Notes: generated by a model from the letters alone, not told the origin. Positions 3,648 to 61,376 are shown, numbered from the stretch's first letter. The stretch is 64,000 nt of DNA from an uncultured Eubacteriales bacterium (GCA_905203305.1 CAJKVH010000001.1:150978-214977); one strand, 5' to 3'. Program-made: numbers and translations.

Positions 3648-3703
3648 CCCATTTGGGGACGGAGATTTTAGGGGAATTCCCCCAAAAATCTCCGTCCCCA
3701 AAT
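3648..3703. repeat. GC-rich palindromic intergenic repeat, copy A
   Basis: cccatttggggacggagattttaggggaattcccccaaaaatctccgtccccaaat, between convergent clpE and ORF 3709-4137. Near-perfect inverted arms around a central GAATTC. Confidence 0.9.
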
Positions 3704-3708
3704 ATCTT

Positions 3709-4137
3709 TTATTCAAAATCTTCTAATAGCTGATTTAAATTTTTTGCTCCTATTACTTCTATACCATTTTTTAATTCATTTATATCATCATCTCCTAAAT
3801 ATTTTGTACTAATATCTGTTACTCTATATAGCACTTCTTCCCCATTTTCATTTATATAATATATCTTTATAATTTCATTTTCACTTTTCAAAATATAATG
3901 TTTATTCTCATCACTTAAATCTCCACTTGTTTCTTCTATCTCGTTTTGAACATTTTTGCTATAATCTTCCCATTCATTTACACAATCATCTAAAACATAT
4001 CTGCTAGATAATTCTGTTTCATTCTTCACAATATCATTTTCGTCATTTATTTTTCTGTTTTGAAATAAATTAAAAATTTCTATTCCTGCAACTAAAACAA
4101 TAACTATACCTATTGATAATAAAATCTTTCTTAGCAT
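3709..4137 (-). CDS. Hypothetical membrane-anchored protein
   Basis: One N-terminal TM segment then an acidic soluble domain. The ATG at 4137 (MLRKILL...) has an AAGAGGTG RBS. The track start at 4146 is a GTG inside that RBS. Confidence 0.6.
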   Translation of the reverse strand: MLRKILLSIGIVIVLVAGIEIFNLFQNRKINDENDIVKNETELSSRYVLDDCVNEWEDYSKNVQNEIEETSGDLSDENKHYILKSENEIIKIYYINENGEEVLYRVTDISTKYLGDDDINELKNGIEVIGAKNLNQLLEDFE

Positions 4138-4168
4138 AAAATACACCTCTTTACATATTTTGGCATAT

Positions 4169-6655
4169 TTACTTAATTTTATTCATTTGATTTATATAAA
4201 AATTTTCTCCATTACTTTTTATAGTAATTTCTCCCATAGTATCTGTCCTATAAACTTTTGCATTCACATTATTTAAATTTTCTAAAGTTACAGTTGATGG
4301 ATGGCCAAATTTATTATTTTTACCTACTCCAATTAAAGCTACTTTAGGTTTTATAAGCTCTAATATTTCTTTTTTAGAAGAGGTTTTTGATCCATGATGA
4401 GCAACTTTTAAACAATCTGCTTTTAATAGATATTCTTTATTCTTATATGTTTTTATAATTTCCTTTTCTGCTATCTCTTCAATATCTCCAGTAAATAACA
4501 TTGAAAATTTCTTATACTTAAGTTTACATACCATAGAATTATTATTAACAACATTTTCATTTATAAAATTTGCTGTTTTAGGCCACAAGATATCAAAATA
4601 TAAATTTTTTTCAATTTCTATTCTTTCTCCTGCTTGTACAACATTTAAATTTAAATTTTTAGTAAGCTTAATAAACTCCTCATAATTTTTATTTTTTTCA
4701 AATTGTTTTCCTATTACAATATTTTTAACTTTCATATTTTCCAATATATAGAATAATCCTTGAGCATGATCTAAATCTAAATGACTAAAAAATATGTAAT
4801 CTATAATATAAATCTTTCTGTCTAATAAATATGGCATAAGAGTATTTTTACCAACATTAAAATCTGAAAATTCACTTCCACCACCATCTATTAAAATTGT
4901 CTTGTTTTTAGGTGTTTTAATTACAGTACAATCGCCCTGCCCTACATCAACGAAGTAAACCTTTAAATTTTTAGGTATATAAAATATAATCGCCACAATT
5001 AATACTATTATACTTAAAATTGCTATAATTTTTTTACGTGATTTTTTTATTTTATATTTAATCAAACTCAAAATATTTATTATTCTTTCTTCAAACATAC
5101 TTGTTTTTCTCTTTAATTTGATTCCTAATATAAAGTTGAAATTAAAAACTAAAAGATAAAAAATTACAATACTAAAAATATTTGGTGTTATAAAATATAT
5201 TTGATTTAAAGGTAAATTTCCGCCAATTTTTGAAATAACTATTAATGCTTTAACAATTAGCATTAATATTCCTTCTATAATTTTTAAACTAAAACAAATA
5301 TAAATTAAACTTATAATAACTATTGACCCTACTAAAAAGCCTGAAATTATACTAATAATTATGCTTGTAATTGTAATATAATTAAATTTTAAAATTATTA
5401 TTGGAATAATCATAATTGTTGCAGATAGTGTTACAAAACACGCATCTGTAACTTTTTTTCCAAATTCAGAATTTAATAATTTTATTATTTTTTGAACAAA
5501 TTTATTTTGTTTTCTATTTGCTCTAATATTTTTTCTTTCTAGAAAATCAGAAAGATATTTTCTCATATTTTTTGAAAACATAACTATTCCAATGGTTGCT
5601 CCAAATGATAATTCTAGCCCTATATCATTTATGGCAAATGGATTATTAAATAATATTATGATTAAAGCTATACTTAAAGATTCTAATATATCATTTTTTC
5701 TATAAATAAAATTAGACATAACAAATATAATCCCAGTAATCCCTGCCCTTACCACAGAAGGCGTAAATCCTGTAATAAACATATAAAATATAATTGCAAT
5801 ACATGTTATCGGCTTTGAATAATGTTTTCCAACTATTTTGTTAAATATAAAGTTTACCGCCAAAATAATATAGCCTACATGCATCCCAGATACTGCTAAA
5901 ATATGTGAGATATTGCTTTTTGAAAAATCTTCTTTTGTTTCTTCTTCTAAATTTTCTTTATCTCCTAGTAATATTCCTTCTATTAAAGCTTTTTCTTGAT
6001 CTTCAAGTTCCATTTTCTGTATCTTTTGCTTGATCTTTAAAGCAACTTTATTAGAATATTTTTTTATTATATTTCCCCTATTATTTTCTTTGATAATTAT
6101 CTTTTTTGCTTTAACTGTTCCATATATTTTTAAAGTTTTGTAATATTCAAATTTATCAAATCCTTTATAATTCGAACGCCTTTCAGGAAAACTATAAGTT
6201 CCACTAAAAGCTACTTCATCTCCATATTTTACTTTGTTTTCATTGGTATACACATATAAAAATGTGTTTTTATATTCTCTATTTGTTATTTTTACTTTTA
6301 TTTTATCTTTAAAAATCTCTTCTACTATTCCATTAAAACTACAATTTTTGGTATCTAAATTTTTGTATAAATTTTCATATCTGTCATTTTGAATTAAAAC
6401 AATTGTATTTGATATTATCGAAAAAAATATTATGATTATAATTACTTTTTTAGGAAATATGACCTTTATATATCTAAAATATCTTCTTGGTGAAAATAGT
6501 TTGAATTTTCTTTTATTGACTTTTGATCTTTTAAATATCAGACATATAGAAATAATAATATAAAAAGGGACTATACTGATTTTACAATATAGCCCCATTA
6601 TTATTCCTAAAATATATCCGATTAATGCTGTTAAAACTTTTCTGTTTTCTAGCAT
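4169..6655 (-). CDS. comEC: DNA internalization competence protein ComEC/Rec2 (with metallo-beta-lactamase domain)
   Basis: 828 aa polytopic protein with a C-terminal MBL motif (HLDLDHAQG) and the usual ComEC architecture. AGGAGG RBS. Confidence 0.9.
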   Translation of the reverse strand: MLENRKVLTALIGYILGIIMGLYCKISIVPFYIIISICLIFKRSKVNKRKFKLFSPRRYFRYIKVIFPKKVIIIIIFFSIISNTIVLIQNDRYENLYKNLDTKNCSFNGIVEEIFKDKIKVKITNREYKNTFLYVYTNENKVKYGDEVAFSGTYSFPERRSNYKGFDKFEYYKTLKIYGTVKAKKIIIKENNRGNIIKKYSNKVALKIKQKIQKMELEDQEKALIEGILLGDKENLEEETKEDFSKSNISHILAVSGMHVGYIILAVNFIFNKIVGKHYSKPITCIAIIFYMFITGFTPSVVRAGITGIIFVMSNFIYRKNDILESLSIALIIILFNNPFAINDIGLELSFGATIGIVMFSKNMRKYLSDFLERKNIRANRKQNKFVQKIIKLLNSEFGKKVTDACFVTLSATIMIIPIIILKFNYITITSIIISIISGFLVGSIVIISLIYICFSLKIIEGILMLIVKALIVISKIGGNLPLNQIYFITPNIFSIVIFYLLVFNFNFILGIKLKRKTSMFEERIINILSLIKYKIKKSRKKIIAILSIIVLIVAIIFYIPKNLKVYFVDVGQGDCTVIKTPKNKTILIDGGGSEFSDFNVGKNTLMPYLLDRKIYIIDYIFFSHLDLDHAQGLFYILENMKVKNIVIGKQFEKNKNYEEFIKLTKNLNLNVVQAGERIEIEKNLYFDILWPKTANFINENVVNNNSMVCKLKYKKFSMLFTGDIEEIAEKEIIKTYKNKEYLLKADCLKVAHHGSKTSSKKEILELIKPKVALIGVGKNNKFGHPSTVTLENLNNVNAKVYRTDTMGEITIKSNGENFYINQMNKIK

Positions 6656-6663
6656 AATCCTCC

Positions 6664-60663: not shown

Positions 60664-60680
60664 TTTTTGTTCCTTTCTTC

Positions 60681-60767
60681 CCCATTTCCCATTTGGGGAC
60701 GGAGTTTTTAGGTGAATTCCCATTTGGGGACGGAGTTTTTAGGGAAATTTTTCCGTACCGTCTCCAA
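60681..60767. repeat. Palindromic-repeat family, copy D (two tandem direct half-units plus a degenerate inverted arm) in the mcsA-mcsB spacer
   Basis: cccatttggggacggagtttttaggtgaatt (60688-60718), cccatttggggacggagtttttagggaaatt (60719-60749), then tttccgtaccgtctccaa. Confidence 0.85.
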
Positions 60768-60776
60768 CATATTAAA

Positions 60777-61325
60777 TTATTTTTCCTCTTCTTTTATTTG
60801 ATCACGTAATTTTGCTGCATCTTCATATCTTTCTTCTTGTATTGCTTGTTTTAACTCTTCTTTCAATTTTTCTATTTTACTTATATTTTCTTCTTCTTTT
60901 GCTTCTTTATCATCTAAGTTTTGTTTTACTTCATTTCCTTCTTTTACTTCTCCTAATCTTCCTACATGAGATGTTGCCCCTTGTAAACTTCTTAAAATAG
61001 GATCTATTCTGGATTCAAATTCATCATAACAATTACTACATCCTAATTTTCCTGTATGCAAGAATTCATCCCATGTTAAACCACAATTTTTACATTGTAA
61101 TTGATTTAAATTTTCTCCTATTGATGGTAAGAAACTCATTTCATTCATATCATCAAAAAAATCTTCTAGGAAATTATTAAAACTTATTGGCATATTAAAA
61201 TGCATATCACTTATTCCTAATTTTTTACTACACTCTTCACATAAAAACATTTGCTTTTTTTCTCCATTTACTATTTGAGTATATTTTACGTTTGCTTCAT
61301 TTTTTCCACAATTTTCACATTTCAT
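60777..61325 (-). CDS. mcsA: McsA (zinc-ribbon / UVR-domain activator of McsB)
   Basis: MKCENCGKNEANVKYTQIVNGEKKQMFLCEECSKKLGI, a second CxxC pair, and a C-terminal UVR motif (EERYEDAAKLRDQI). ATG at 61325. The track extension crosses repeat copy E. Confidence 0.88.
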   Translation of the reverse strand: MKCENCGKNEANVKYTQIVNGEKKQMFLCEECSKKLGISDMHFNMPISFNNFLEDFFDDMNEMSFLPSIGENLNQLQCKNCGLTWDEFLHTGKLGCSNCYDEFESRIDPILRSLQGATSHVGRLGEVKEGNEVKQNLDDKEAKEEENISKIEKLKEELKQAIQEERYEDAAKLRDQIKEEEK

Positions 61326-61345
61326 AATAATCATCCTTTCTTTTT

Positions 61346-61376
61346 CCCATTTGGGGACGGAGTTTTTAGGGGAATT
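61346..61376. repeat. Palindromic-repeat family, copy E (single half-unit) in the ctsR-mcsA spacer
   Basis: cccatttggggacggagtttttaggggaatt, 20 nt upstream of the mcsA ATG. Followed by the small palindrome ctgtttgcaaacag (61381-61394). Confidence 0.85.

Follow-up and report, generated by a model that had tools for sequence, protein, structure and literature searches.

A 64,000-nucleotide stretch of DNA from an uncultured Eubacteriales bacterium (GCA_905203305.1, CAJKVH010000001.1:150978-214977; here called the window, with positions counted from its first letter) carries conspicuous GC-rich palindromes between positions 3648 and 61376, several of them close to the start codons of stress-related genes. 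Are these sequences control elements of the genes beside them, or copies of a dispersed repeat that has come to lie there? The evidence points to the repeat. We put the probability at about three in four that they belong to a lineage-specific family of short interspersed repetitive extragenic palindromic (REP) sequences, of the REPIN or bacterial interspersed mosaic element (BIME) type, which is moved by a REP-associated tyrosine transposase (RAYT), occupies intergenic gaps, and is not a stress-gene control element. The family is undescribed; its kind, REP/REPIN, is already known. An earlier note on this DNA had listed a REP-like or miniature inverted-repeat transposable element (MITE)-like element with an insertion preference among several possible roles, and this is the role that the evidence supports.

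The basic module is a unit of ~31 nt, CCCATTTGGGGACGGAG(A/T)TTTT(A/C)GGGGAA(TT), or 35 nt counting shared AATT ends, and not the 58-bp palindrome that had been taken as the repeat element. The palindrome itself is real: a perfect match to the 58-mer lies at 11107-11164 and one with 2 mismatches at 12602-12659, with none expected from 100 shuffles, and the units stand out, as had been noted, against a window G+C content of 23-32%. A 31-nt profile built from 18 units recovered 10 units in the window (9 full and 1 partial) at five sites, with no further scoring match anywhere in the 64 kb. Three sites hold inverted pairs that form 58-62-nt palindromes, one holds a direct tandem pair, and one holds a single unit. 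Five copies of a perfect palindrome had been claimed; the five sites stand, but 3648-3706 is an imperfect palindrome, and two of the sites are tandem or single.

The inverted pair at 3648-3706 is an imperfect palindrome of full units at 3648-3678 (plus strand) and 3676-3705 (minus strand), the outer end of the right arm having decayed to ...CCCCAAATATC. In the spacer between gtrA and the Ca-ATPase gene, units at 11107-11137 (plus) and 11134-11164 (minus) share the central GGGGAATTCCCC and, including flanking TT/AA, form a perfect 62-nt palindrome at 11105-11166. Abutting it is a partial third unit on the minus strand, CTCATTTGGGGACGGAAAT (11166-11184; profile match at 11166-11182, nhmmer E of 0.0025), which lies 3 nt after the gtrA stop codon (11188-11190). 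The hslO 5′ leader contains the third pair (12602-12659), detected with both the 58-mer and the unit profile, with units at 12602-12632 (plus) and 12629-12659 (minus). Between mcsA and mcsB lie two direct tandem units with a 31-nt period (60688-60718 and 60719-60749, both plus), whose C-rich strand is in the mRNA; an adjoining minus-strand sequence, TTGGAGACGGTACGGAAAAATTT (60750-60772), appears from comparison with loci L068, L070, and L072 to be a decayed inverted arm. This array had been read as one palindrome copy at 60681-60767, and 61346-61376 (plus) in the ctsR/mcsA spacer, also read as a palindrome, is a single unit. The conserved core, TTGGGGACGG...TTTT, lies between unit ends that are able to pair (GAATTCCC/GGGAATTC). 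The arrangement differs from that of a clustered regularly interspaced short palindromic repeat (CRISPR) array: successive units follow one another every 31 nt with no spacer in between, inverted units occur as well, and the copies are scattered over operon spacers.

RNA folding of the three palindromic copies gave hairpins of 27 to 31 bp (−43 to −61 kcal/mol; z scores of −6.8 to −8.1), with values of −42.8 and −45.1 kcal/mol on the two strands of 3648-3706 (z of −7.5 and −6.8), −61.1 kcal/mol for 11105-11166 (z of −8.1), and −56.4 kcal/mol for 12602-12659 (z of −7.5). The tandem copy (60688-60749) and the single copy (61346-61376) folded no better than shuffled sequences (z of −0.10 and −0.07). 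The 27-bp hairpin predicted for the 5′ untranslated region (UTR) therefore holds for the palindromic copies and fails for the tandem and single ones. Since the copies in the ctsR operon are unfolded, the long hairpin is not general to the family, and a hairpin-dependent function is inapplicable to mcsA and mcsB. As DNA, a single unit has an 8-bp closing stem, formed by the paired ends, around a 21-nt loop (−4.4 kcal/mol; z of −2.2); at 31 to 35 nt, it is a short imperfect palindrome within the REP range (~20 to 40 nt).

The hairpins leave the Shine-Dalgarno (SD) sequence unpaired. Sequestration of the SD by pairing with the C-rich strand as an anti-SD was ruled out, because the SD stays unpaired in the folds and no structure forms in the tandem copies; an intrinsic terminator was likewise ruled out, because no U-tract follows the long hairpin on either strand. 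Rfam searches gave no match at gathering thresholds and, at permissive thresholds in two subregions, only generic microRNA precursor-like long hairpins far below the cutoffs. The arms of the hslO palindrome show uncompensated A/C and T/C differences among strains. The attributes of a cis-regulatory RNA leader were thus not found: there is no Rfam family, orthologous leaders are without the element, the ctsR operon copies are unstructured, and the arm differences are uncompensated.

Pfam searches confirmed the identities of the neighboring genes, namely, a ClpE-like AAA+ ATPase, a BofC-like protein, a P-type Ca-ATPase, GtrA, Hsp33, SpoVG, and the ctsR-mcsA-mcsB-clpC operon. The gap from element to ATG is 21 nt for hslO (ATG at 12580), 27 nt for the Ca-ATPase gene (11079), 24 nt for mcsB (60663), and 20 nt for mcsA (61325), so that the short, regular spacing reported earlier stands, with its range corrected from 17-27 nt to 20-27 nt, in keeping with the sequences quoted there. 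Upstream stop codons are equally near (3 nt after clpE and 3 nt after gtrA), and the elements fill whole spacers, their position not being set by start codons alone. The copy at 3648-3706 was correctly placed 3′ of clpE: it begins 3 nt after the clpE stop codon and occupies the 64-nt gap between the convergent clpE-like (stop at 3644) and BofC-like (stop at 3709) genes. Three of the four start-proximal copies are intercistronic, within operons; the hslO palindrome begins right after a conserved TATAAT (12666-12661, minus strand). The 20-to-27-nt distances are real, but they are no evidence of a dedicated leader; copies tolerated only between a stop codon and the next SD in short spacers would show the same constant geometry.

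A canonical CtsR operator, GTCAATAAAGGTCAAAGAAAGTCAAA, is present at 61921-61947, directly after the ctsR promoter (TTGAAA-16-TATAAT), and neither the clpE-like gene nor hslO showed a CtsR box, a direct heptad repeat, (A/G)GTCAAA-NAN-(A/G)GTCAAA, typical of class III gene promoters. A CtsR regulon was ruled out as an explanation of the repeat, the only CtsR box being that upstream of ctsR. This good box overlaps no unit, in agreement with the earlier statement that the repeat matches neither the CtsR box nor the controlling inverted repeat of chaperone expression (CIRCE), the latter compared by eye. An inverted repeat, TTGTGAAA...TTTCACAA, lies at 1228-1262 between the promoter-like site and the start codon of the clpE-like gene and may be an operator for some regulator.

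Orthologous sites in relatives show the same genes without the element. Sister lineages with 88% identical HslO have 18 nt in place of the palindrome in the hslO leader and keep the spoVG terminator, the AAAATAGAGTATAATT −10 region, and the GAAAGGAAG SD; their gtrA/ATPase spacer is 36 or 53 nt long and has no unit. In relatives with 82 to 91% identical ClpC, the ctsR/mcsA spacer is 19 to 95 nt long without a unit, and the mcsA/mcsB spacer is just 3 to 11 nt; the species with 86% ClpC identity has no element in 20 kb around the ctsR operon. The purine-rich stretch downstream of the element, AAAAGAAAGGA..., also occurs in relatives that lack the element, so the SD is ancestral and not carried by the unit. 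The proposal that the unit includes or abuts the ribosome binding site is thus not supported, and the same observation ruled out a unit that brings its own SD (GGGAAAAAGAAAGGA, common to hslO and mcsA). Comparison of filled and empty sites revealed no target duplication. The flanks show only junctions in which T-rich sequence meets CCC...GGG, followed by A-rich sequence; no consistent direct duplication and no parent insertion sequence (IS) was seen. The combination of terminal inverted repeats (TIRs), a fixed-length target duplication, and a parent IS that marks a MITE was not found.

The array now in the mcsA/mcsB spacer (60664-60776) inserted into the initial codons of mcsB. Relatives read MNWYLQRGKDSDVVVNCKIMYSRN at the mcsB start, and the window protein, beginning MIKVAYVRN, is ~17 residues shorter at its N terminus; this truncated 322-amino-acid (aa) McsB is kept across strains. 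A relic of the ancestral mcsB start (ATATG-TTGG) is probably present upstream of the array, within 60750-60772. To judge from these alignments, the empty sister sites and the damage to mcsB represent tolerated insertions and not a tuned leader. The element can remodel a coding 5′ end and yet be tolerated.

Same-species contigs from human gut metagenomes were retrieved from public assemblies via the window proteins. Among strains with identical McsA, the ctsR/mcsA spacer holds 1 or 2 units (two in one strain), and the mcsA/mcsB spacer holds either 2 units or 2 plus a 23-nt partial unit, with most other strains carrying the partial. Inverted doublets occur with or without a spacer at other loci (L051 versus L053; L052), as in the doublets and clusters of REPs, and a loop insertion is polymorphic between L051 and L053. 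At least 7 independent metagenome contigs end inside a unit, as assemblies do at multicopy repeats. Gene callers sometimes read into the repeats, giving a McsA of 217 aa and a McsB of 342 aa in L077. Beyond the high end of the window, same-species contigs end in the 3′ part of a 23S rRNA gene and a tRNA gene (L077 1-220 and L079 1-60), which probably places an rRNA/tRNA locus just outside the window, ~0.2 to 0.9 kb past its last gene.

The window-type unit was found at 12 distinct sites in all, 5 in the window and 7 further ones. One of the latter, on the same contig and ~10 kb outside the window's start, lies 4 nt after a small open reading frame (ORF) and upstream of a tRNA-Glu promoter, far from any start codon. 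The others occupy the pyrK/pyrD and clpX/pyrF spacers, the region upstream of accA, the gap separating two SpoU-type methyltransferase genes (trmL/trmH-like), an unknown gene's leader (with three or four units in tandem), and, possibly, in opposite orientation, spoIVB/fabD in L055, a suspect chimeric contig that is given little weight. In L055, the G+C content falls from ~38% to ~29% at the tandem unit pair (~2700-2830), and the contig may be a chimeric assembly joined at the repeat. All 12 sites are extragenic, except for the mcsB 5′ end remodeled by one insertion, and the sampled density is 9 sites in ~97 kb. Occupied window spacers lie between co-directional genes in four cases and convergent genes in one, none of the three divergent spacers being occupied; their preinsertion lengths were 5 to 104 nt, and the 14 window spacers of 112 to 676 nt hold no unit. 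This placement matches the published rule for REPs, which are found between co-directional or convergent genes and not in divergent promoter regions (PMC3733652).

Proteostasis genes adjoin four of the five window sites (Fisher P of 0.002, window only), and enrichment at Clp, Hsp33, and CtsR operon genes gave a Fisher P of 0.004 when pooled with two other sampled regions; the test was post hoc, and the sampled regions had been chosen through these very genes. The window P value was 0.08 when the 38-kb polysaccharide cluster was excluded as recently exchanged DNA, an exclusion tried because the cluster differs between species. In the pyr region, of three to five sites, just one adjoins a clp gene. 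Placement without regard to gene function, which the earlier note had named as counting against a regulatory role, is largely what was found, although a nominal local clp/hsp enrichment remains. The idea of a leader or ribosome binding site-linked unit for the Ca-ATPase and proteostasis genes is not supported, in view of the empty sister sites, the variable copy number, the copies at pyr, acc, trm, and possibly fab genes and at a tRNA promoter, and the lack of a hairpin in every second stress-gene copy.

In sister lineages, the unit occurs in variant forms, for example, TTTTCTGATTGGGGACGGTTCTTTTTCAGAAAA and ATGTCCCATTGGGACCGGTTCTTTTTGGGACAT, and the species with 86% identical ClpC carries the variant AATTCCCTGTTTAGTGCCGGTTCTTTTTTAGGGAATT. 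The variants have a common plan, a closing stem followed by (A/T)TTGGGGAC(C)GG and then a T-run, and the closing stems (AATTCCC, ATGTCCC, and TTTTCTG) differ yet still pair, three related variants keeping a stem of altered sequence. Three sites (directly after clpE, clpX/pyrF, and pyrK/pyrD) are occupied across lineages, each lineage by its own variant, and among strains of one lineage, different variants occupy the same site. One sister lineage independently has its own variant in the ctsR 5′ UTR and 3′ of clpC.

In the species with 86% ClpC identity, a gene for a 266-aa Y1 protein is bracketed by two plus two units in inverted orientation (L081 2839-3639 and, likewise, L082 1897-2697). It lies between fabG and rpmB and is frameshifted in strain L083 (2852-3653); in other lineages, the fabG/rpmB slot holds unrelated variable genes. 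The L081 protein passes Pfam Y1_Tnp, and its sole NCBIfam match, over the full profile length, is NF047646, REP-associated tyrosine transposase (E of 6.6e-16). It has HUH and tyrosine motifs, with NHVHLV as the HUH motif and RYVHRNP/YKWSS in addition, and its 90% cluster is confined to that species. A RAYT homologue 28% identical to it (E of 9e-17) is encoded in an alphaproteobacterial metagenome-assembled genome (MAG) of 59% G+C (L012 5040-5830), flanked by seven GGGGACGGAG(TAAAA) hairpin arms, of which two hold the exact 17-mer CCCATTTGGGGACGGAG. Sequence comparison indicates that the core motif is common to the window unit and the L012 arms, across phyla. The C-rich strand is the mRNA sense at 5 of 6 nonpalindromic window-type sites and at 3 of 3 in the L081 species, a bias confounded by gene orientation that would fit strand-biased single-strand transposition. 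Another Y1 transposase, that of L069, was considered as the mover and rejected: it belongs to an ordinary IS200 with its own hairpins, unrelated to the repeat. This IS200-type gene (L069 12539-12991; NCBIfam transpos_IS200, 148 bits) is present in one strain and absent from the other (L068, ~14680).

Wider scans added little. A 17-mer scan of GTDB representative genomes, among which the source species is not included, gave 39 matches, near chance; the informative ones are L012 and possibly L008 and L039. A 22-mer scan of metagenomes gave six loci, L054 being a chance match in a T-box terminator, and a scan of viral contigs gave no match. Both L054 4846-4867 and L028 7154-7177 are chance matches in T-box leader terminators of GC-richer Clostridia that read CTCCGTCCC(C)AAATGGGGACGGAG. 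A Coprococcus MAG (L008) has arrays of GGGGACAGGTACCTCCGTCCCC hairpins with a 64-nt period (2530-3300 and 7170-7330), inverted on either side of a 165-aa ORF, which does not encode a Y1 transposase. Four contigs labeled as belonging to different phyla share a nearly identical ~75-nt stretch closed by GGGGACGGAGAG...CTCTCCGTCCCC (L001 5541-5615, L010 5976-6050, L013 5007-5081, and L033 2708-2783), which may be a structured RNA or mobile or contaminant sequence. In a sister species (L064, 18235 and 18919), direct half-units, TTTTTGAAATGGGGACGGTTC, bracket a hicA-hicB toxin-antitoxin cassette that separates comEC from bofC and is absent in the window species; L066 has additional genes at this place and a further unit where they join. 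The repeats may mark the insertion of cassettes or bring it about.

The family resembles the REP/BIME and REPIN-RAYT systems of Escherichia and Pseudomonas (PMC3116915, PMC3733652) in its short GC-rich extragenic units that occur as singlets, inverted doublets folding into long hairpins, and clusters; in their placement between co-directional or convergent genes, downstream of ORFs, without target duplication; and in a lineage-specific sequence at partly conserved sites, with inverted units on both sides of a RAYT-like Y1 gene in a relative. It differs in its host, an AT-rich uncultured member of the gut Clostridia, and in a single unit that, instead of a compact stem-loop, is a weak hairpin with a large conserved loop; its head-to-tail arrays of 2 to 4 units, varying by whole units between strains, are unusual for REPs. 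It also resembles the TIRtron/TIRYT repeats, moderately abundant families, distinct from GTAG REPs, that flank RAYT-like tyrosine transposase genes as inverted repeats; these TIR repeats have GGGGWSAS in common and come as dimers and in clusters (Di Nocera et al. 2013, PMC3733652). Of the 8 GGGGWSAS positions, the window core GGGGACGG agrees with 7, and the L008 Coprococcus hairpins (GGGGACAG) agree with all. TIRtron/TIRYT repeats have been reported from Stenotrophomonas, Acidobacteria, and others, with Firmicutes and Clostridia never mentioned (PMC3733652); group 1 RAYTs do occur in Clostridia (Bertels et al., PMC5581495). The present family is described in neither PMC3733652 nor PMC5581495. 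A full-text literature search for the sequence found 10-mers in unrelated papers only and 15-mers nowhere.

Other small repeats offer partial parallels. Mycobacterial interspersed repetitive units (MIRU), reportedly described by Supply et al. in 1997, are said to be 46 to 101 bp long and nonpalindromic, with small ORFs overlapping neighboring stop and start codons and no Y1 transposase. The window family is like them in its head-to-tail units in the intercistronic spacers of operons and its strain-variable copy number; it is unlike them in that the window-type unit is 31 nt long and palindrome forming and in that MIRU have no associated Y1 transposase. BOX and RUP of Streptococcus pneumoniae and the Correia elements of Neisseria are ~100 to 150 bp long or modular, RUP and Correia having TIRs, target duplications, and an IS-type origin. 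They too are small noncoding repeats in the transcribed intergenic DNA of compact genomes that were first suspected of regulating flanking genes, but they are longer and have no sequence similarity to the window unit.

A mechanism can be outlined on these grounds. A single-copy RAYT-type Y1/HUH transposase would act in trans on single-stranded DNA, leaving no target duplication; arrays would grow and shrink by unit-length slippage or recombination, and old sites would be overwritten by the variant current in each lineage. Selection would remove insertions that harm promoters or SDs, leaving survivors in transcribed spacers with a preinsertion length of ~5 to 100 nt, where they end ~20 to 30 nt from the ATG. 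Palindromic copies would put a hairpin of 27 to 31 bp into the mRNA with the SD uncovered, and this could influence mRNA decay or serve as an RNase III cleavage site. RNase III acts on Correia hairpins in mRNA, and such cleavage is a plausible fate of the 27-to-31-bp hairpins. The hslO transcript would begin with the hairpin, and in Firmicutes a hairpin in this position is known to protect mRNA against 5′ exonuclease.

Several observations weigh against a RAYT-moved REP family. Searches of the window and of ~110 kb of loci with window-type units by tblastn, with two RAYT-like proteins as queries, detected no RAYT or Y1 gene, so that the link to a transposase would run through a related species and a distant phylum, and the RAYT-like proteins score below the NCBIfam equivalog cutoff (58.5 and 61 bits versus 80). 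The unit has no terminal unpaired GTAG or CGTC tag (GTAG is absent, and CGTC lies inside CTCCGTCCCC, within the stem or loop) and fits neither REP superfamily as defined in PMC3733652, in one of which (CGTC) head-to-tail arrays are negligible (PMC3733652). A lone unit is weakly self-complementary, more weakly than classical REPs; the copy number, ~150 sites per genome, is an extrapolation from the sampled DNA; and the nominal enrichment at Clp, Hsp33, and CtsR genes is unexplained by a purely neutral model.

That enrichment is the starting point for the view that the repeat is a dedicated posttranscriptional module of stress operons, in which the hairpin, or the C-rich unit directly 5′ of the SD, would stabilize the 5′ end against RNase J, be processed by RNase III, sense temperature, or control translation and would have been selected at the Clp, Hsp33, CtsR operon, and Ca-ATPase genes. 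Such a module would account for the four proteostasis-flanking sites in the window, for the sister lineage's own variant in the ctsR 5′ UTR and 3′ of clpC together with the variants 3′ of clpE and clpX, for an hslO palindrome directly after the −10 box that puts the hairpin at the 5′ extreme of the mRNA, and for hairpins that keep the SD free. We consider it quite unlikely, however, given that the sites at the same genes are empty in sister species, that copy number varies among strains, that the ctsR operon copies are unfolded (z of about −0.1), and that a hairpin of −50 kcal/mol cannot melt at heat shock temperatures. Copies also occur at pyr, acc, and trm genes, at a tRNA promoter, and possibly at fabD (on the suspect contig); the species with 86% identity lacks the element around the ctsR operon; the arm differences are uncompensated, with no Rfam family; and sampling was biased to regions picked for containing these genes. 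Co-option, in which the copies by the clp ATPase genes, hslO, and the ctsR operon would have been retained by selection as 5′ or 3′ mRNA stabilizers or processing sites, also seems unlikely; it would explain why two lineages with different variants independently have them in or near the ctsR-clpC operon and 3′ of clpE and clpX.

A repeat that spreads without a RAYT, either a MITE derived from another IS or a MIRU-like minisatellite maintained by recombination, gene conversion, and slippage only, would fit the lack of a RAYT in the sampled DNA of the window species, the head-to-tail arrays that differ by whole units between strains, and the duplication of CCCATTT at the element edge at two sites (window 60681-60694 and L088 ~73-86). 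REPs of the CGTC type have moreover been reported without a dedicated transposase (PMC3733652). We nevertheless hold this origin to be improbable: neither a consistent target-site duplication nor a parent IS whose ends match was seen, slippage alone cannot yield new sites in different operons, and homologous units flank, in inverted orientation, the RAYT-like gene of a relative, with the core motif flanking the RAYT homologue of L012. Sites acting at the DNA level, as operators for a regulator or nucleoid protein or as intrinsic terminators or attenuators, would be suggested by the perfect palindromes with a conserved core, by the copy between convergent genes, where a bidirectional terminator is expected, and by a pattern scan that shows a weak terminator-like hairpin inside the unit on the noncoding strand. 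But most copies lie inside operons, downstream of promoters, the long hairpin has no U-tract on either strand, the tandem and single copies are nonpalindromic, orthologous sites in relatives lack the element, and the unit is distinct from the CtsR operator upstream of ctsR; such a role is very improbable.

To our knowledge, REP/REPIN-RAYT systems have been studied almost only in Proteobacteria. The family described here, read as a RAYT-moved REP population, points to an evolving REP-like population in an uncultured lineage of AT-rich gut Clostridia, with strain polymorphism in unit number, replacement of variants at conserved sites, and a core motif, GGGGACGG(AG), common to the repeats that flank RAYT homologues in other phyla. 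The repeat accounts for the breaks in metagenome assemblies at these spacers and for miscalled gene starts, and its loci are usable for strain typing. Conspicuous palindromes beside stress genes should not be taken for regulators.

Two further features of the window were recorded. Direct repeats with a period of 135 to 141 nt at 16194-19727 are the ChW (clostridial hydrophobic W) repeats of two cell wall hydrolases, one with a GH25 muramidase domain and the other with an M14 peptidase domain. From ~13100 to ~51300 runs the 38-kb polysaccharide cluster, a minus-strand series of cell envelope polysaccharide synthesis genes (glycosyltransferases, an ABC-2 exporter, Wzz, CpsB, a sortase, a pyruvyl transferase, and a sugar transferase) that holds no repeat units. 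It includes a RelB antitoxin gene at 33601-33930, and the adjoining part differs in the sister species.

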